Both the position numbers and the translations under genes were made by a program. From Octopus sinensis (Eukaryota), in the NCBI RefSeq assembly GCF_006345805.1, contig NW_021828078.1, positions 1-45,808 of the forward strand: a stretch of 45,808 nucleotides of DNA, given 5' to 3'. Below are positions 1,526-37,043 of this stretch, piece after piece. Within the stretch, counting starts at the first letter, position 1. Every line of letters starts with the position of its first letter. Under the pieces are notes generated by a model. That model did no database searches. It was not told the origin of the DNA and saw nothing but the letters and a program-made list of their open reading frames with translations.

Positions 1526-1889
1526 ATATGCACACACAAACGCACACACACACACACACACGCACACACACACATAGACACACGAACACACACAAATGCC
1601 TAATTTGGGCGTTGGATCTGTGCATGCATGTATGAATGTATGCATATATGAGTTTGTGTGTGTGTGTGTGTATACGTGCATGAGTGTGTGTACTGGAATG
1701 CTTACATACATGCATATGAATATAGACAGATTTATTATGTGCGTATGCGTACGCGCGTATGCCCCTGTGCACTGTGCCACTGTGGTAGTGGATATATATA
1801 TATATTATATATATTATATATATATATATATATACATATAAATATTGAACAATGAGAATGAGCTTTCAACCCGCATTGGTGGTTTATAA

Positions 1890-2020
1890 TTTCTTTACTT
1901 GTGTATTAAGGCTACCGCTGTTTTCATGTTACGAGAATATCTAAATATCTTAAGAAAAGTGTTAAGGTTTAATATTTTCTTAGCATGAAACCAATGGTAG
2001 CCTTAATACACAGCTAAGAA
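1890..2020. repeat. Inverted repeat (~60 bp arms), each arm carrying the 3' half of a hammerhead-like core; second copy at 3149-3282
   Basis: tgtgtattaaggctaccgctg(g)tttcatgtta ... ttagcatgaaaccaatggtagccttaatacaca. The right arm reads catGAAA-ccaatg-GTA-gcc. Confidence 0.8.
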
Positions 2021-2241
2021 TATATATATATATTATATATGTATATATAATATATGTATATATTTAGTTGAATTTACAGAAAAAACAAAAAAAAACCAAG
2101 ACAGGTGTATAAACAGCAAACGGAAAGTGAGAAAGTCTTTTACGTTTCGAGCCTACCTCTGCAAATGAAAGGAACACGGGGAAATAAACAGATAGAGAAT
2201 AAAAGACTATTGGAGTTAGCGGTGAATCATACATACTATAC

Positions 2242-2288
<47 letters not shown>

Positions 2289-2504
2289 TATATATATATA
2301 TATATTATATTATATACACACAGACATATATATATTCATATGTGGGCATATATATATTATATGTGTAGATTGCTTGGAGACATAAGGCGTGTTATAAAAA
2401 CTTGGCTAGACCCGTATCTTCAAGCATGAAACTAATAGCAGTTAGTATCATTATATTTTGTACATTGTTGATGTCCCCTTGAGAGAAAATAAACTATTCG
2501 AATA

Positions 2505-2539
<35 letters not shown>

Positions 2540-2715
2540 ATAGATATATATATATATATTATATTTCGATGGGTGATGAATTATCCTATTTTACCGTCAA
2601 CATGGAAAATTGGATGAACAAATACCAGGTAGCAATTCACGTCAGAAAACACAGTTGAAGCGACACATCCAAGGTAGAAACTCCGGTTCATGTGCAGAAT
2701 TTGTGTATTATATAT

Positions 2716-3052
2716 GAAAAAATAAATAAATGGAGTTGAACGAAGGTGTTGATAAAATTCCTTTACTTACGGCATATGTTTCGAAGACAACATGGTTTTA
2801 TTCCAAATGAATAAACGGTGTAAGATGCAATCTTCTCATCAGGAAAGAAAGGGAGCCTCTCTCACCACAGACAATATAATAATACAATGACTGCATTGTC
2901 TTGTTGATGAGAGAGGCTCCCTTTCTTTCCTGATGAGAAGATTGCATCTTACACCGTTTATTCCTTTGGAATAAAACATGTTGTCTTCGAACATATGTCA
3001 AAAGTAAAGAATTTATCAACATCTTCGTTCAACTCCATTTATTTATTTATTC
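2716..3052. mobile_element. ~340 bp foldback element with two back-to-back hammerhead motifs, inserted in (TA)n; second copy at 3987-4330
   Basis: Arms of about 155-160 bp are near-perfect reverse complements around a short AT-rich centre (~2875-2895). The arms contain CTGATGA-gaaga...tcttc-GAAA-catat-G(T/C)C, and both flanks are TA repeats. Confidence 0.8.
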
Positions 3053-3401
3053 ATATATATATATATGTGTGTGTGTGGTGTGTATATATATACATATAAA
3101 TATTGAACAATGAGAATGAGCTTTCAACACCGCATTGGTGGTTATAATTTCTTTACTTGTGTATTAAGGCTACCGCTGGTTTCATGTTAAGAGAATATCT
3201 AAATATCTTAAGAAAAGTGTTAAGGTATTAAGATATTTTCTTAGCATGAAACCAATGGTAGCCTTAATACACAGCTAAAGAATATATATATATATTTATA
3301 TATGTATATATATATATATGTATATATTTAGTTGAAATTTACAGAAAAACAAAAAAAAAACCAAGACAGGTGTATAAACAGCAAACAGGAAAGGTGAGAA
3401 A

Positions 3402-3440
3402 GTCTTTTACGTTTCGAGCCTACGCTCTGCAAATGAAAGG
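3402..3440 (-). ncRNA. Degenerate minimal hammerhead ribozyme of Penelope-like type; other copy at 2135-2172
   Basis: Minus strand reads cctttc-atttgca-GAGC-gtag-GCTC-GAAAC-GTA-aaag. Helix II (GAGC/GCTC), GAAA, the palindromic ACGT helix III and helix I (cttt/aaag) are present, but the CUGANGA box has decayed. Confidence 0.55.
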
Positions 3441-3546
3441 AACACGGGGAAATAAACAGATAGAGAATAAAAGACTATTGGAGTTAGCGGTGAATCATAC
3501 ATACATACATACATACACACATACATATATATACTATATATATATA

Positions 3547-3586
<40 letters not shown>

Positions 3587-4193
3587 ACACAGACATATAA
3601 TATATCATATGTGCATATATATATTATATGTGTAGATTGCTTGGAGACATAGGCGTGTTATAAAAACTTGGCTAGACCCGTATCTTCAAAGCATGAAACT
3701 AATAGCAGTTAGTATCATTATATTTTGTACATTGTTGATGTCCCCTTGAGAGAAAATAAACTATTCGAATAAATAATATATATATATATATATATATATA
3801 CTATATATATATATATATATAATATATATTTTCGAGGGTGAATGAATTATCCTATGTTTACCGTCAACATGGAAAATTGGATGAACAAATACCAGGGTAG
3901 CAAATTCACGTCAGAAACACAGTTGAAGCGACACATCCAAAGGTAGAAACTCCGGGTTCATGTGCAGAAATTTGTGTATTATATATGAAAAAATATATAA
4001 ATGGAGTTGAACGAAGGTGTTGATAAAATTCCTTTACTTACGGAATATGTTTCGAAGACAACATGGTTTTATTCCAAATGAATAAACGGTGTAAGATGCA
4101 ATCTTTCTGGAAGGAAAGAAAGGAGCCTCTCTCACCAACAAGACAATATAATAATTACAATGACTGCTTGTCTTGTTGATGATGAGAGAGGCT

Positions 4194-4287
4194 CCCTTTC
4201 TTTCCTGATGAGAGATTGCATCTTACACCGTTTATTCCTTTGGAATAAAACCATGTTGTCTTCGAAACATATGTCAAAAGTAAAGGA
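4194..4287 (+). ncRNA. Hammerhead ribozyme motif (type I topology, palindromic helix III ACATATGT, GUC site); duplicate at 2919-3009
   Basis: CTGATGA at 4205-4211, GAAA at 4264-4267, ACATATGT at 4267-4274, GTC triplet at 4273-4275. Helix II ga(a)ga/tcttc encloses an inner hairpin tttattcc/ggaataaa. Helix I cctttctttc pairs with aaaagtaaagg, with a mismatch at the first pair. Confidence 0.65.
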
Positions 4288-4330
4288 ATTTTATCAACAT
4301 CTTCGTTCAACTCCATTTATTTATTTATTC

Positions 4331-4362
<32 letters not shown>

Positions 4363-4544
4363 ATATATATACATATGCATGTATGCTTGTATGTATGTAT
4401 ATGAAGTCGTCATTTCAGTTATACAGCGAACGTTTGCATGAGAATGATCATCTGTTGCTTGTTAAAACATTACATAACAGAACAAAGTAACAAAACCATT
4501 TCGTCAGACATGATTTGAATCTTCAATATATATATTATATTATA

Positions 4545-5630: not shown

Positions 5631-5816
5631 ATATAGGAAAATGGAGAATTTAGTTTTTGGTCATCAACGTACGGATATATAATGTTAGATTATTTATTCA
5701 TTTTACAAATGAGGACATCAAAAGCATATAAAAATATTATATAAATCAATAGATAAGATAATAATAATAAAATACAGATTTTAGAAGTCATATTATAAAT
5801 TAATGAGATCCTAAAA

Positions 5817-5964
5817 ATTACTTCTTACAGCTGTTTCAGCCTATGGTCAAAAGTGAATCTAATTTTCATTGCCTATACATGTCAACATACTAAGGTTGTA
5901 GGCATTAAAAAAAATATAATACTTATATGTTAAAGAACCATAGGCCTCGTCAGAGGTTATAATT
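5817..5964 (-). ncRNA. Motif-complete hammerhead ribozyme with an 11-bp helix II and ~87-nt loop II
   Basis: Minus strand: CTGACGA (5953..5947); helix II GGCCTATGGTT (5946..5936) pairing with GACCATAGGCT (5848..5838); GAAA (5837..5834); palindrome ACAGCTGT (5834..5827); GUA triplet (5828..5826); helix I CT/AG plus AATTAT/GTAATT across an internal loop. Confidence 0.72.
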
Positions 5965-6268
5965 AACATAAAAAATATTAATAATAATATTAATATATTA
6001 AGCAAGATGCACGTATTACTTAATATATAAAAATAAACAATAAACAAATATCCAAATATACATATATATATATACATATAAAAATACATATATACATACA
6101 TATACATACATACATAAGCAAATCGTATATACTATTCACATGCGCAAAATACATTAATGAACACCATTAAACAATATATTACATTATTGCCTACAACCTT
6201 AGTATGTTGACATCTATAGGCAATGAAAATTGGATTCATTTTTGACCATAGGCTGAAACAGCTGCAAG
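5824..6268. repeat. Inverted repeat, ~80 bp arms (5824-5903 and 6188-6268) with ~285 bp spacer
   Basis: cttacagctgtttcagcctatggtcaaaagtgaatc...aaggttgtaggca is the reverse complement of tgcctacaacctt...gattcatttttgaccataggctgaaacagctgcaag, with few mismatches. Confidence 0.9.
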
Positions 6269-6349
6269 TTTTTGGTAGGTTTTGACAGACGCATTTATGT
6301 CGATTGGGACAGTCTTATTAATGAGGAAGCATTATTATTATTATTATTA

Positions 6350-9151: not shown

Positions 9152-9420
9152 TGTACAAGACATCACCATGGTGCAAATAACATGAATACGTAAACTACGA
9201 GAAAAAAGGAAACACACAGAAAGGACCCTTCATCAGTTGTCAGCTATCTATCTAGTCCTCCTTTCGAGCATTCAACGACAATATGAGTCTTCAAAGACAG
9301 TTGCTCATATAAATTCAAAAATAAAATTGAGTATTTATGGAAGGCATACAAGGAAACCGAATGAAAACAAATATGGACGGTTGTTAGGCCAGAACAAGAA
9401 GAAAATAGTGATAGATAGAA
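9150..9420 (-). mobile_element. Possible Penelope-like terminal-repeat remnant next to (TA)n
   Basis: Minus strand has gagca...tgctcGAAA and, downstream, aaCTGATGAaggg. These are hammerhead half-motifs, not a complete fold. Confidence 0.35.
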
Positions 9421-9423
9421 ATA

Positions 9424-10131
9424 GGATTTCCTGGAAAGTTCCGAGGATGAGACTTCATGGAGAACTCCGAGGTTGGGAGTTGAGACTTCCTGGAAAATAT
9501 CGTGGAACGTTCCGAGGAGAGACTTGAGACTTCCTGGAAACTTCCGTTGATTTCCTGGAGAGTTTCGAGGATGAAACTCCATGGAAAATTCAGAGGACTT
9601 CCTGGAAAATTCCGAGGGCTTCCTGGAAAATTCCGAGGATTTCCTGCAAAGTTCCAAGAAAGAGACTTACTGGAAAACTCAGAGGACTTCCTGGAAAGTT
9701 CCGAGGATGAGACTTTAGTCTTCCTGGAAAATTCCTAGGATTTCCTGGAAAGTTCCGTGGATGAGACTTCCTCGAAAATTGAGAGGACTTCGTAGAAAGT
9801 TCCGAGGATGAGACTTCCAGTAAAATTCCGATGATTTCCTGTAAAGTTCCCAGGATGAGACTTGAGATTTTCTGGAAAATTGGGAGGATTTCCTAGGAAG
9901 TTCCGAGAAAGAGACTTCCTGGAATGTTACCTCCTGGAAAATTCCGAGGATTTCCTGGAAACTTCCGATGTTGCGACTTCCTTTGAAAATTCCGGATTTC
10001 CCTGGAAATTTCCGAGGATAAGGCTTCCTGGGAAATTCCGATGGCTTCCAGGAAACTTCCGAGGATGAGCCGTGATACTTCCTGGAAAATTTCGAGGATA
10101 CCCTGGAAAGTTCCGTGGATGAGACTTCCTG
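9424..10131. repeat. Minisatellite with mixed 21-bp and 26-bp units (core ACTTCCTGGAAA(A/G)TTCCGAGG, with or without ATGAG)
   Basis: Roughly 30 degenerate units. Short and long units often alternate, giving ~47-bp higher-order periodicity. Confidence 0.92.
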
Positions 10132-14905: not shown

Positions 14906-15351
14906 GGATCTTTTCGGTTTGACCTGCAGTTTTTACTAGCGGTGTCATATGAAATTGTCACCCATAATTATAACCCTAGTATCGATCTATTGCATTTCAA
15001 TCTGTTTTAGGGTTAGGGTTAGAGTTAGGGTTAGTTAGGGTTAGGGTTAGGGGTGGGGAGAAGGGTATCTTTTTTTCTTCACAAATGTAAATAAACCCAA
15101 TCTGTTTCTTAAACGAGGGACATATTCATATGGCACAGAATGTTTTTTACCCCAATAGACGTCATTGATTGGTTGAAATTGCAGAAATTGAAGAAAAGAT
15201 GCAACAAATATCTTACAAACTATAGAATTTTCTCAATAAAGCCAAGAGAAAAAGATGTTTTATAAACACATTCTACCAGTATACGAAGTTTAAAAGAGTT
15301 TAGTTACGTGGAAATTATTTTAAAAAACTGCCGTTCAAACCGAAAAGATCC
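14906..15351. mobile_element. ~446 bp non-autonomous TIR element with internal TTAGGG repeats
   Basis: Ends GGATCTTTTCGGTTTGAcctGCAGTTTTT ... AAAAACTGCCGTTCAAACCGAAAAGATCC; ttagggttagggttagagttagggttagttagggttagggttagggg at about 15007-15053. Second copy at 19786-20661. Confidence 0.9.
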
Positions 15352-15604
15352 AAAACATCTTTCTAAGAGGAAGAATTGAAAGAATTGAAGACGGAAGATA
15401 ACATACACACATATACGTATTTACGTTAATATTCACTCATGCAGTACTGGTTATAACAAGTCCTAAAACACATCAGAACACGCGGTGGGACAAAACTAGA
15501 AACTTACGTGGTTGCGAAACGTACTTCTGAACCACACAGACATAGATACCTTTTTTTTTAATGTGTTTTTACGAGTTATTATGTTTACAATATTTAATCA
15601 ATTA

Positions 15605-16007
15605 AAGGCGACGAGCTGGCAGAAACGTTAGCATGCCGGGCGAAATGTTTAGCGGCATTTCGTCTGCCGTTACGTTCTGAGTTCAAACTCCGCTGAGGTC
15701 GACTTTGCCTTTCATCCTTTCGGAGTCGATGAATTAAGTATCAGTTATGCACTGGGGTCGATGTAATCGACTTAATCTATTTGTCTGCCCTTGTTTGTCC
15801 TCTCTGTGTTTAGCCCTTTGTGGGTAGTAAAGAAATAGGTATTTCGTCTGTCTTAACGTTCTGAGTTCAAATTCCGTCGAGGTCGACTTTGCTTTTCACG
15901 CTTTCTGGGCTTATAAATTAAGTACCAGTTGCATACTGGGGTAGATCTAATCGACTGGCCCCCCTCCCCTAAAATTTCGGACCTTGTGCCAAGAGTAGAA
16001 AAGAATA
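15605..16007 (+). mobile_element. SINE family B (tRNA head, Meta-domain-like core), tandem dimer
   Basis: aaggcgacgagctggcagaaacgttagc head, B-box-like gagttcaaactcc, core gtcgactttgcctttcatcctttcggagtcgat; the body repeats after aaagaaatagg. Confidence 0.9.
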
Positions 16008-16122
16008 TTTAAACAATCACGTTTTCTTTTAAATTTTGAGGGAGGCATTGATAAAATCGGTATTAATAAAATCATGTAACAAGTCTTATTTTAATAAATT
16101 TATTCTATCTCCACTCATAGAT

Positions 16123-16700
16123 ATTCTTTTCTACTCTAGGCACAAGGCCCGAAATTTTTAGGGAGGGTGCCAGACAATTATATCGACCCTAGTACGCAAC
16201 TGGTACTTAATTTATCGACTCCGAAAGGATGGAAAGCAATGTCGACCATGGCGGAATTTGGACTCAGAACGTAAAGATAGACGAAATACCTAATTCTTTA
16301 CTACCCACAAGGGGTTAAACACAGAGAGGACAAACAAGGACAGACAAACGGATTAAGTCGATTATATCGACCCCAGCGCGTAACTGGTACTTATTTAATC
16401 GACCCCGAAAGGATGAAAGGCAAAGTCGACCTCGACGGAATTTGAACTCAGATCGTAAAGACAGACGAAATACCTGTTTATTACCCACAGGGGCCTAAAC
16501 ATAGAGGGGACAAACAAGGACAGACAAACGGATTAAGTCGATTATATCGACCCCAGTGCGTAACTGGTACTTAATTTATCGACCCCGAAAGGATGAAAGG
16601 CGAAGTCGAGCTCAGCGGAATTTGAAATCAGAACGTAGCAGCAGACGAAATACCGCTAAGCATTGCGCCCGGCGTGCTAACGATTCTGCCAGCTCGCCAC
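16123..16700 (-). mobile_element. SINE family B, tandem trimer
   Basis: Three reverse-complement copies of the body; the head ends at gccagctcgccacc (~16700). Confidence 0.9.
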
Positions 16701-19785: not shown

Positions 19786-20661
19786 GGATCTTTTCGGTTT
19801 GAACGGCAGTTTTTTCTAGCGGTGTCATACTCTTTTACTCTTTTACTTGTTTCAGTCATTTGACTGCGGCCATGCTGGAGCATCGCCTTTAGTCGAGCAA
19901 ATCGACCCCGGGACTTATTCTTTGTAAGCCCAGTACTTATTCTATCGGTCTCTTTTGCCGAACCGCTAAGTGACGGGGACGTAAACACACCAGCATCGGT
20001 TGTCAAGCAATGCTTGAGGGACAAACACAGACACACAAACATATACATACACATACATACATATATATATACATATATATATACGACAGGCTTCTTTCAG
20101 TTTCCGTCTACCAAATCCACTCACAAGGCATTGGTCGGCCCGAGGCTATAGCAGAAGACACTTGCCCAAGATGCCACGCAGTGGGACTGAACCCAGAACC
20201 ATGTGGTTGGTAGGCAAGCTACATACAACACAGCCACTACTGCGTCATATGAAATTTTCACCCATAATTATGACCCCAGTATCGATCTATTGCATTTCAA
20301 TCTGCTTTAGGGTTAGGGTTAGAGTTAGGGTTAGTTAGGGTTAGGGTTAGGATCAAGGTTAGGGTGGGGGGAAGTTATCTTTTTTTTCTTCAGAAATGTA
20401 AATAAACCCAATCTGTTTCTTGAACGAGGGACATATTCATACGACACAGAATGTTTTCACCTCAATAGACGTCATTGTTTGGTTGAAATTGCAGAAATTG
20501 AAGAGAAACAACAACAAATATCTTACAAACAGTAGAATTTTCTCAATAAAGCCAAGAGAAAAAGATGTTTTATAAACATATTCTACCAGTATACGAAGTT
20601 TAAAAGTGTTTAGTTACGTGGAAATTATTTTTAAAAACTGCCGTTCAAACCGAAAAGATCC
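19786..20661. mobile_element. Second copy of the TTAGGG-bearing TIR element, inserted in (TAG)n and interrupted by a SINE
   Basis: TIRs GGATCTTTTCGGTTTGAACGGCAGTTTTT / AAAAACTGCCGTTCAAACCGAAAAGATCC; the body is colinear with 14906-15351 once 19830-20249 is removed. Confidence 0.92.
19830..20243 (-). mobile_element. SINE family A, full length, nested in the TIR element
   Basis: Flanked by the direct repeat GTCATA (19824-19829 and 20244-20249), which is single in the uninterrupted copy. Confidence 0.92.
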
Positions 20662-28200: not shown

Positions 28201-28404
28201 AGTTATTCACTTCTCAGGCAAGAAGTCATAAGGCTCTTTCTCAGTTTCCCCTTCTGCAGGTTCCATTAATGCATGCACGCAGAAATATACACATGCAGAT
28301 AGAGAGAGAAAAGACATGACAATGTCTTAATTGAATACGATTGAAATAAACAGTTTCCATCTCCTCATATGCATAAATAGAAACATGACCACACACATAA
28401 AGAG

Positions 28405-28850
28405 GTCATCATCATCATCATCATTGTTCGACCGTGGTCGAGACAATGGAATTTACTGTTATGCCAGACTTCACGGTCCATCATAGCATTACGGAGGTCC
28501 TGTTGCTGGATTCCTGTATCCCTGGAGATTACATCAGGGTACGAGAGTGTGCGCCCTCTGGTATCGCGAGTAGATGACTTCCAGAGGAGAAGAGTAATAA
28601 TTGCCTCGTTTTCAGCTCTACAACAATGTCCAGCAAACTGGACTCTCCTACCTTTCACAAGAGATGACACAGGTGGTAGTTTCCCATATATTTGCATTTT
28701 GGTTGGATGGCGCTTCCACGAGAGATTTTGAGCTCTCATAAGGAGGCGAGTGTAGGTTCCATCCAACCGCCTCTCAAGCTTCTTTGATAACGTCCAGGTT
28801 TCTGAGCCATATAGTAGAATTGGTTCGACTGTGGCTTTAAAGAGGTTGAG
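28405..28850 (-). mobile_element. RTE-clade LINE, 5'-truncated (reverse transcriptase C-terminal region) with (ATG)n tail
   Basis: LFKATVEPILLYGSETWTLSKKLERRLDGTYTRLLMR...RRVQFAGHCCR...MMDREVW. The LLYGSETW, (W/F)xGH and DRxxW motifs are typical of RTE ORFs. Confidence 0.9.
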
Positions 28851-29124
28851 AGAATGAGAGAGCGAGAAAAGCATTAAAACGATTGACGTCAATTAAGCCA
28901 GTGTCGCCAAAACGGTTGCGCCAAGTCTCATATACCCCATACATATTTATCTCCAAGGAAGTTTTGATTTTATTTTTCACAGTCTCTTGCAATCTGAAAT
29001 ACTTCACAATTCTGAACCTCCCATCTTGGAACATTGGCAGACATTTCATTTTTGGTTTCTCCTCCTGCTGAAGATATGTGACATCTAGTGAAAATCATGT
29101 GTTTGTGTCTCAGAGCAATATTCG

Positions 29125-33441: not shown

Positions 33442-34106
33442 AAGAGTCGACTCAGGTGAAGAGCCAATCCCAAGCGGAGAGTTAATCCCAGAGGGAGAGT
33501 CAATCTCAGACGAAGAGTCAAACCCGGGCGAAGGGTCAATCTCAGGCAGAAAGTCAATCGCAGGCAAAGAGTCACTCTCAAGCGAAGAATCAGTCTCAGG
33601 CAGAGTCAATTTCCGGCAAAGAATCAATCCCAGACGGAAAAGTAATCTCAGGCAAAGAAAGAATCAATCACAGACGAAGAGTCAATCTCCGACGAAGAGT
33701 CAAACTCAGGTGAAGAGTCACTCTCAGGCAAAGAACTAATTACCAGCAAAGTGTCAATCTCCGGCAAAGTGTCAATCTCAGGCGAAGAGTTACTCTCAAG
33801 CGAAGAATCATTCTCAGGAGAAGATTCAATCTCCGGCAAGAGTCACTCTCAAGTGAAGAATCAATCTCAGGCGAAGAGTCAATCTCCGGCAAAAAAATCA
33901 ATTCCAGGCGGAGAGTTAATCTCGGGTAAAGAAAGAGTCAATCTCAGACGAAGAGTCAATCTCTGGCGAAGAGTCAATCTCAAACGAAGAGTCATTCTCA
34001 AGCGAAGAACCAATCTCCAGCAAAAAGTCAATCTCTGGCGAAGGGTCAGTCTCAGACGGAGAGTAAATCTCAGGCGAAGAATTAATCAGAGACGGGGAGT
34101 CAATCA
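33442..34106. repeat. 18-bp minisatellite, consensus GAGTCAATCTCAGGCGAA, about 36 units
   Basis: Regular 18-nt periodicity with scattered substitutions and a few indels; the minus strand translates as (PEIDSS)n in three broken ORFs. Confidence 0.93.
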
Positions 34107-34463
34107 GGCACTCATAAATGCCCGATCTTTTTCTCTGTGGCATTCAGACTTACCAAATCTCATAATCTATTTATCATCCGATGAGTCTTTATTTTTTTAT
34201 CTTCAAGACAGTCGATTGTACATTAATGCTTTGATATACAGAAAGAGGATTATATAATACTGCATAAACCCCTCGTCAGTTACAAAGATTATTCAATCAT
34301 TTACGTCTTGTATCATTTGGTGTATCTCTGTGGTCTGCACTCATTTAACGAAGTTTATCACGTCAAATCATTCCCTTGGCATTTTCTGCAGTTGGGGTAC
34401 AAGATGTTATTTCTGCATAATCTTTTCCACCCCTTTCAGGCATAGCACCACGAGCAAGTGTCT

Positions 34464-34768
34464 TCATTCTTGCTCACAACATCATAAGCGGAAAGTGTAA
34501 CCTCTCGAAAGAGCTGTTCTTCACTCCTGCTCGAGAGCGTCGGCTGCGGGGTCACTCCGAAAAGCTCTATCTGCGACGATTTCATCTCAATCGAAGGAGA
34601 GAGGCTTTCTCCGTCCGGGTTGCGGATCCGTGGAATAAGCTGCCGGACGAGATGGTGAAGATGCCGACGACCGCTCGGTTCAAAGTCTCCCTTGAGCACA
34701 AGTGGCCTGAACTCTTTACATGAACACCACCCAGTACATAACTCCATGTCCCGGCGGCCTTTTGGCTG
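34464..34768 (+). mobile_element. CR1-clade LINE 3' fragment
   Basis: ILAHNIISGKCNLSKELFFTPARERRLRGHSEKLYLRRFHLNRRREAFSVRVADPWNKLPDEMVKMPTTARFKVSL..., stop at 34721-34723. The RGHxxKL / FSxRVxxxWNxLP / FK motifs match CR1 ORF2 C-termini. Confidence 0.88.
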
Positions 34769-36121: not shown

Positions 36122-36420
36122 GTTAAGTTAAGTTAAGTTAAGTTAATCTTTTGTCTCAAAAAGCAAAAAGCAAGGCCATGTAGGGGGACATAAAGTTATG
36201 TACAGGGGTGTTCATGCAAAGAGTTCAGGCCATTTCTGGTCAAGAGAGACTTTGAACCGAGCGGTCGTCGGCATCTTCACTATCTCGTCCGGCAACTTAT
36301 TCCACGGATCCGCAACCCGGACGGAGAAGGCCCCTCTCCTTCGATTGAGATGAAATCATCGCAGATAGAGCTTTTCGGAGTGACCCCACAGCCGACGCTC
36401 TGGAGCAGGAGTGAAGAACT
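36122..36420 (-). mobile_element. CR1-clade LINE 3' fragment with (CTTAA)n tail
   Basis: Reverse complement of 34516-34765 at high identity; tail gttaagttaagttaagttaagttaa at 36122-36146. Confidence 0.9.
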
Positions 36421-37043
36421 GAGGGCTTCGAAATGGTTTCTTTTCAAAAAGGTACACATTTGACAATGTAGTCTGCCATACACTGTGTCTGTAGGATCCT
36501 GAGAAAGTGGCGATGATTTGATCGGGTAAAATGATAAATTTGGAAAGATCGCTAAAAGAAGAAGAAAGAATTTCTAAAGCCTTGGACAAAGGCCCTGATT
36601 GTAGTCCAAGATACACTATGCCTTCTCGCCACCCACCACCATAAAAAGACAGATTTGTTATGGTTGGAACGAACGTTATCCTTAAGTTTATTAGATCAAG
36701 ACTAACCTGGGATTAAACAACCGCAAGGGAAAAAAAGCTTCTTCTTAGCATCACTGCATCCCAGCATCCCGGGGCAGCCAGCTTCTACTACCATTTTTTT
36801 TTTCACCGTCATCATCATCATCATCATCATCATCATAAACATCGTAATGACGATACCAGCCCTTATCTCTCACCCCGTACCACATCTCTGATATCAGACC
36901 AAACTCCCCACTGACTTCGAAACAGAGACCACATGTTCTATGTCCTAAATACAGAGCATGGCGTGCCTTGTTTAACAAACATAAATTTGTTTATATAATA
37001 TTCTCTTGTTACCTCTCCACCCCACCCTCTCGCCATCTCTCTT

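Follow-up and report, generated by a model that had tools for sequence, protein, structure and literature searches.

A TA microsatellite in an Octopus sinensis contig carries fragments from five multi-copy repeat families, of which four are probably truncated Penelope-like tails with predicted hammerhead motifs

How did five repeat modules come to stand side by side in a single (TA)n tract, and what do these modules have in common? The question is raised by positions 1841-3052 of a 45,808-nucleotide stretch of Octopus sinensis DNA (hereafter, the window, i.e., the whole stretch that was analyzed), where a first-pass annotation had described a stack of at least five modules, each with a hammerhead-type GAAA and a self-complementary helix III. 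In our assessment, the locus is probably a TA microsatellite that holds pieces of five multi-copy families, four of which are likely 5'-truncated tails of Penelope-like elements (PLEs) with a predicted type I hammerhead or a part of one.

Inspection of the window sequence located all the quoted GAAA and palindrome motifs at the positions given for them. The modules are labeled here M1 (1841-2019), M2 (2064-2227), M3 (2363-2504), M4 (2565-2708), and M5 (2716-3052). The TA-rich tracts between them lie at 1792-1845, 2020-2063, 2228-2365, and 2505-2564, M4 and M5 are separated by a 7-bp TA spacer (2709-2715), and a TA/TG sequence after 3052 closes the stack. Thus, the description of five modules set between TA runs holds. 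The accompanying statement that the modules share no other obvious sequence does not hold entirely: AGCATGAAAC is common to M1 and M3, and the left tail of M1 is identical to the tail of M5 at 19 of 22 bases (E 0.005). Within the window, further copies of any module are found only in a duplicate of the whole stack, and the insertion into (TA)n described here refers to this one locus.

1792-1845, no strand: (TA)n tract that borders the stack on its left
2228-2365, no strand: (CATA)n/(TA)n tract
3083-4360, + strand: second copy of the entire stack (1.26-kb duplicate, 96% identity)

ATATATATACATAT is shared at the bounds of the tandem copy at 3083-4360. A comparison of the copies over 963 non-microsatellite bases gave 34 indel events, including 22 of the homopolymer type, and 7 substitutions, comprising 7 transversions and 0 transitions. 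Such a profile of indels and transversions is characteristic of unpolished long reads and not of natural divergence, so the second copy is likely to be an assembly artifact (a false or unpolished duplication) or else a very young duplication. None of the aligned public contigs crosses the duplication junction, where repeats were skipped in the alignment. Single-letter defects in either copy may be sequencing errors; for example, the GAAA of the right arm of M5 lacks one A in copy 1 and is intact in copy 2.

The copy number and the family letters of the modules were assessed with contigs of four public runs that were aligned, at 80% likeness, to 2366-3496, a span that includes each module once. 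The aligned contigs numbered 6,340 in X1 and 4,908 in X2, two runs of one study, and 477 in X3; run X8 yielded 0 contigs, which is no proof of absence. All five modules are multi-copy. Many contigs per module differ from one another in their letters, which refutes single-copy status for five of the five. The peak summed depth in X1 was 4.8k for M3, 67k for M4, 135k for M1, 251k for M5, and 2.27M for M2; the pattern in X2 is similar, with M2 the highest and M3 the lowest in both runs. The eight single contigs listed have depths of 27 to 60, compared with thousands to millions summed over the modules. Summed depth is not copy number and is usable for orders of magnitude only, and in these terms, the families comprise roughly 10^2 copies for M3, 10^3 for M1, M4, and M5, and at least 10^4 for M2. 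A hand count over 40 of the 46 letter rows and the 7 indel rows gave 11 family changes that restore or add a core letter or a predicted pair (3429, 3433, 3434, 2772, 2769, 2808, 3176, 2416, 2405, 2427, and +G 2684); no majority change that breaks a core letter or a pair was found in the same rows. Contig joints further identified other copies of M1 and M5 with different centers, mostly in one contig each, as expected of independent truncations.

The paired full motif that had been noted at 2716-3052 proved to consist of two complete predicted type I hammerheads arranged head to head; the defects of the left one are repaired by the family letters.

2716-2867, - strand: M5 left arm, with a type I hammerhead that is complete at 2847-2766 (predicted fold and family letters)
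2905-3052, + strand: M5 right arm, in inverted orientation, with its hammerhead at 2925-3004 (inverted-repeat match)

The two arms are 96-97% alike, and each reads outward into TA. An arm is laid out as helix I, CUGAUGA, a helix II domain of 52-53 nt, GAA, ACAU/AUGU, and C17, with helix II starting at G10.1-C11.1 and consisting of 6 bp plus an extension. In the left arm, the family letters bring back U16.1 (2772; 97-100% of depth), extend helix I to its full 5 bp (2769; 93-95% in X1 and X2), and repair an apical pair (2808); no family change at ≥25% is listed at the core positions in the aligned contigs. Read as one RNA, the pair is predicted to form a single hairpin (-232 kcal/mol, z -28), which would bury both hammerhead motifs.

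M3 follows the same design as a single arm and is cut inside the core.

2363-2504, + strand: M3, Hydra-type hammerhead cut inside its core (loose end at 2367; family rows 2405, 2416, and 2435)

In the window, the core reads GTGTAGA (2363-2369), directly after the TA tract. Upstream of 2367, 55 contigs of X1 extend by a median of 228 nt, and their consensus ends in GCCTGA (agreement, 0.58), which completes the family core to CUGAAGA. The helix II domain of M3 spans 56 nt (2371-2426), has U on either side, and forms 12 bp and an inner stem, in which the family letters repair pairs at 2416 and 2405. U-GAA-ACUA-N-UAG(C)-A makes up the 3' half. The register initially suggested for helix III fails to leave a helix I, and the register ACUA-N-UAG(C)-A at 2431-2440, with one mismatch, is better. 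Position 16.1 is C in the window, helix I consists of 3 bp, and AATAAA is present near the 3' end.

M2 represents the most abundant family at the locus, with roughly tens of thousands of copies as judged by summed depth, and its motif is of the minimal type.

2064-2227, - strand: M2, remnant of a highly abundant family; its minimal hammerhead lies at 2171-2137, which corresponds to 3439-3404 in the duplicate

The family motif consists of helix I CUUU/AAAG (4 bp), the core CUGUUGA, an extra A, helix II GAGC-guag-GCUC (4 bp), GAA, helix III ACGU (2 bp), and A17. All three family changes in the motif (3434, 3433, and 3429; 92-99% of depth) restore hammerhead letters, namely, U4, G5, and A9. At position 6, the family retains U instead of the near-invariant A of hammerheads: no row restores A at 3432, and the four A>T places per run are all elsewhere. 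Loose ends at 3428 agree with U6 in X2 (55 contigs), and those in X3 (13 contigs) have G at the free position 7 and keep U6. In the family, U6 is kept while helices I to III, G10.1-C11.1, and GAAA are intact and position 7 varies. An alternative register with UUGAAGA was rejected because helix II would shrink to 1 bp and helix I would be lost.

The remaining two modules of the stack are incomplete.

1841-1940, - strand: M1 left arm, 5'-truncated stub with a hammerhead 3' half and a tail of about 70 nt ending in (TA)n
1972-2017, + strand: M1 right arm, inverted relative to the left arm, with U-GAA-ACCA-A-UGGU-A at 1986-1999
2565-2708, + strand: M4, multi-copy imperfect hairpin with the Hydra-like 3' half GAA-ACUC-C-GGGU-U at 2677-2688

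The arms of M1 (1895-1940 and 1972-2017) are 83% alike and unequal in length. M1 is cut inside helix II, such that only the 3' half is present and the 5' strand of helix II is missing. In the left arm, the family majority letters yield helix III ACCA-A-UGGU and a tail with AATAAA (3175, 3176, and 3156 in the duplicate), and the right arm has 14 exact bases in common with the Hydra-1_Obim hammerhead. Near 1860, the minus-strand GAAA-G-CTC that had been singled out as a hammerhead signature lies in the tail of the left arm of M1 and was rejected because no CUGANGA-type core is present within 90 nt upstream.

In M4, helix III comprises 4 bp with one G-U pair and resembles that of Hydra-1_aJap, and the extra G (+G 2684) is present both in the family and in copy 2. 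A candidate helix I (ACAUG/CAUGU) lies 18 nt away from helix II, which is only 3-4 bp long. No CUGANGA core was detected next to helix I or helix II of M4; the nearest core-like word is UCGAUGA, and the family letters favor a competing 7-bp stem. Readings of M4 on either strand, or from the upstream GAAA at 2605, never placed a core beside both helices. For a twister fold in the M4 tail, as in the Naiad PLE, no twister family was among the Rfam matches in 1841-4340. M4 is probably a related tail, decayed or non-canonical, at chances that are close to even.

A sixth hammerhead module, M7, was identified at 5640-6270 as an inverted pair between TA tracts.

5640-5965, - strand: M7 left arm, canonical-core hammerhead at 5953-5826
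6184-6268, + strand: M7 right arm, truncated at the 5' end and inverted relative to the left arm, to which it is 94% complementary over 85 nt

The left arm contains CUGACGA, an 11-bp helix II base in a domain of 109 nt, ACAG/CUGU, and A17, with a helix I of 2 bp. The arms are unequal in length, and the match between them ends 2-3 bases past the predicted cleavage site. Another short module was observed between TA/TG tracts at 4400-4525 (- strand), in which CUGACGA and GCAA-ACGU-U accompany a possible helix II of 4 bp; given that its helix I fails, it is a weak hammerhead candidate.

Taken together, a predicted hammerhead is supported in M5 and, by the family letters, in M3 and (with U6) in M2; the claim that each module carries one is too strong, given that M1 lacks the 5' half here and that, in M4, no core lies beside the helices. 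The CUGANGA core is present in M5, M7, and the M3 family, is replaced by the U6 variant in the M2 family, and is absent from the truncated M1. A paired helix II closing on GAA was found in M5 (6 bp plus the extension), M3 (12 bp), M2 (4 bp), and M7 (11 bp). An A15.1-U16.1 pair, H17, and a helix I adjoining the core are present in M5, with the family letters, and in M2. The expectation that family consensuses would restore CUGANGA and helix II was borne out in M5 and M3, and in M2 except for position 6, but not in M4.

The signature on which the modules had been recognized, GAAA with self-complementarity, does not exceed chance as evidence. Its loose form (GAAA, a short palindrome or hairpin, and UH) is found 139 times across the window, with 12 sites in 1841-3052; the mean in the null (20 Markov-simulated windows) is 147. 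A strict descriptor gave one canonical-core match in the window, M7 at 5953-5826 (- strand), where the null expectation is 0.04 per window. No module in 1841-4340 passes the strict descriptor as the sequence stands; M5 is missed there because each copy has single-letter defects. In the 45.8-kb window, the Hydra-type 3' half is confined to M1, M4, M5, and M7, all within 1.8-6.3 kb. In the local null for this 3' half, at least three occurrences were obtained in 1 of 3,000 runs and four in 0 of 3,000, values that are optimistic given that the descriptor was picked after the modules had been seen. Rfam comparison of 1841-4340 (E up to 10) returned no hammerhead family among 49 matches, and for the entire window, no hammerhead was among the 150 matches listed out of 233. 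The microRNA matches in Rfam were discarded as microsatellite or hairpin noise below gathering scores.

The features of the stack point to PLEs, primarily those of the Hydra clade. Published descriptions of PLEs include (TA)n targeting, heavy 5' truncation, and an often seen adjoining inverted truncated copy (PMC8557442). In the same account, 25 of the 27 listed Hydra families prefer (TA)n, the hammerheads of the clade have a 4-bp helix III and often U.U flanking helix II, and an octopus family, Hydra-1_Obim, is included (PMC8557442). The modules share with this clade, as described there, (TA)n targeting and a type I hammerhead near the 3' end, the 4-bp helix III with a loop of 0-2 nt (M1, M3, M4, M5, and M7), U.U flanking helix II (M1 and M3), and the inverted 5'-truncated partner (PMC8557442). 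Among the modules, a 4-bp helix III near the 3' end is found in M1, M4, M5, and M7 and, with one mismatch, in M3, but not in M2; 5' truncation or an inverted partner characterizes the M1, M5, and M7 pairs as well as M3, with its cut inside the core. Helix III of M1 is identical to that of Hydra-1_Obim from Octopus bimaculoides, and the 3' half of the M3 family has the layout of Penelope-1_HM (PMC8557442). Conversely, the helix II domains of M5 (52-53 nt), M3 (56 nt), and M7 (109 nt) are far longer than those of the listed Hydra motifs (≤24 nt), the families differ from the published Hydra consensuses, and no open reading frame (ORF) is seen with the modules here (PMC8557442). A search with 10 motifs from the window or the families found none in the PLE 3' ends of the supplement of Craig et al. 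2021 (PMC8557442); one 10-mer occurs four times in that supplement, the two places listed being coding sequence. In the Octopus vulgaris genome, Penelope-like repeats are a recognized component that is in part of recent origin; the word "ribozyme" is absent from the published description.

M2 stands apart from the other modules. It matches the described minimal PLE hammerheads in the 4-bp helix I, the extra base 9/10.1, G10.1-C11.1, and the palindromic ACGU without loop III (PMC4209133). Like the modules here, those minimal hammerheads are mostly dispersed as single or opposite-strand copies; the modules other than M2 differ from them in the 4-bp helix III (PMC4209133). The earlier assignment to PLEs with minimal hammerheads therefore fits M2, save for U6, and does not fit M1, M3, M4, and M5, in which helix III is of the Hydra type. 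The tails likely work like those of Hydra-clade PLEs (M1, M3, M5, M7, and perhaps M4) and of minimal-type PLEs (M2).

Judging from published PLE biology, the stack could have grown as follows. The GIY-YIG endonuclease of a PLE would nick (TA)n, the reverse transcriptase (RT), starting at the 3' end of the element RNA, would copy it and halt after 60-330 nt, and a second, inverted truncated copy would often be placed beside the first. TA would remain on both sides of each insertion, so the tract would stay a target on which later families could land. The transcripts of the parent elements would be cut by their hammerheads, which likely act as dimers formed via the palindromic helix III; the module copies here are likely inert relics. 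The view of (TA)n as a landing site for hammerhead-bearing retroelements is thus in keeping with the behavior of the Hydra clade and with the presence of M7 in the next TA tracts, while at this locus, it concerns those modules that do carry predicted hammerheads. Weighing against this reading, none of the 140 window ORFs scanned has an RT or GIY-YIG Pfam family, Rfam gives no hammerhead match in 1841-4340, and the U6 of M2 departs from the conserved core.

Several other explanations were weighed against this scenario. The modules could be short non-autonomous elements, akin to retrozymes or short interspersed elements (SINEs), that borrow PLE enzymes, which appears rather unlikely for the stack as a whole and is most plausible for M2 and M4. 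No ORF is nearby, and the scanned ORFs of the window (140 of the 159 found) include none with an RT or GIY-YIG Pfam family; the depth of M2 is very high, and the hairpin of M4 exists at the family level. Retrozymes have also been reported to be non-autonomous PLE derivatives, and animal non-LTR retrozymes are likewise short non-coding repeats with type I hammerheads and kinship to PLE ends (PMC7229834, bioRxiv 10.64898/2026.07.22.740005). However, as described, retrozymes form tandem copies of one unit, in contrast to the mixed stack and inverted pairs here (PMC7229834, bioRxiv 10.64898/2026.07.22.740005); the whole-stack duplicate is the only tandem copy at this locus, the M3-family contigs reach a median of 228 nt upstream of the core, and the centers of M1 and M5 vary.

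The long inverted arms of M1, M5, and M7, with their TA flanks, are also what foldback or MITE-type DNA transposons targeting TA would leave, in which case the likeness to hammerheads would be incidental. We consider this improbable: both arms of M5 hold a complete hammerhead that reads outward to the tail, the arms of M1 and M7 are unequal, centers differ between copies, and M3 has the same design in a single arm. Slightly less probable still is that the motifs arose by chance in AT-rich repeats of some other kind, a possibility that mainly concerns M4, which fails the core test, and that draws on the chance-level frequency of the loose signature and the lack of an Rfam match. Against it, the family letters shift M2, M3, and M5 toward the core and pairing, and M7 passes the strict descriptor. 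Truncated PLE tails thus remain the preferred reading, under which the locus is a compact example of a microsatellite that serves as a landing site for several Penelope-like families known by their hammerhead tails only. Such tails can help to annotate "unknown" repeats in TA-rich animal genomes. The (TA)n targeting, the hammerheads, and the inversions are already published; what may be new are the long helix II domains together with the U6 core.

The U6 core has a partial precedent. A natural A6C hammerhead of phage Bcep176 is described as slow in Mg2+ and rescued by Mn2+ (PMC3088659, PMC7151607). Both are natural changes at core position 6, but Bcep176 has C6 in a single phage motif, whereas the M2 family has U6 in an abundant animal repeat (PMC3088659, PMC7151607). 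The core variant named for minimal hammerheads is U3-A8, as opposed to the CUGUUGA of M2 (PMC4209133). Among the titles and abstract beginnings searched, the U6 core was not found in print; the work of Lunse et al. on PLE hammerhead variants may cover it. We tentatively suggest, as a possibility that is the less likely outcome, that U6 in M2 is a working, perhaps metal- or protein-tuned, core variant, amplified across a genome, that CUGANGA descriptors miss, and that Hydra-type elements are similarly hidden from standard searches by helix II domains that have grown to 50-110 nt. Hammerheads in such genomes would then be heavily undercounted. The M2 family also provides a natural test of whether PLE hammerheads must cleave at all, a question posed in the published analysis of these elements (PMC8557442). 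If U6 is inactive and the M2 family is nevertheless the most abundant, cleavage would be dispensable; if U6 is active, it would constitute a new natural core variant.

Pattern scans for relatives of the modules gave 0 matches in viral contigs and 0 in metagenomes. The single match among genome contigs, 22 bases of M2 inside a bacterial ORF with unrelated flanks, is close to what chance would give; it lies on a contig of a bacterial metagenome-assembled genome (L001, 1-780, - strand), where the ORF is integrase-like by eye.

The rest of the window contains additional repeats. A complex satellite with periods of 21, 47, 101, and 148 bp and TTCCTGGAAAATTCCGAGGA-like units occupies 9400-10131. Two copies of a repeat that starts with short TTAGGG runs are located at 15007-15400 and 20307-20650. 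A long imperfect hairpin at 15935-16193 is followed by 2.6 tandem copies of a 180-bp unit (16177-16654), which we take to be SINE-like. Three ORF fragments, at 28365-28892 (- strand), 34421-34723 (+ strand), and 36356-36712 (- strand), had no Pfam match and presumably resemble the C-terminal ends of RTE- or CR1-type LINE proteins. Finally, an 18-bp tandem array of 36 copies at 33442-34105 has open frames and is possibly coding.
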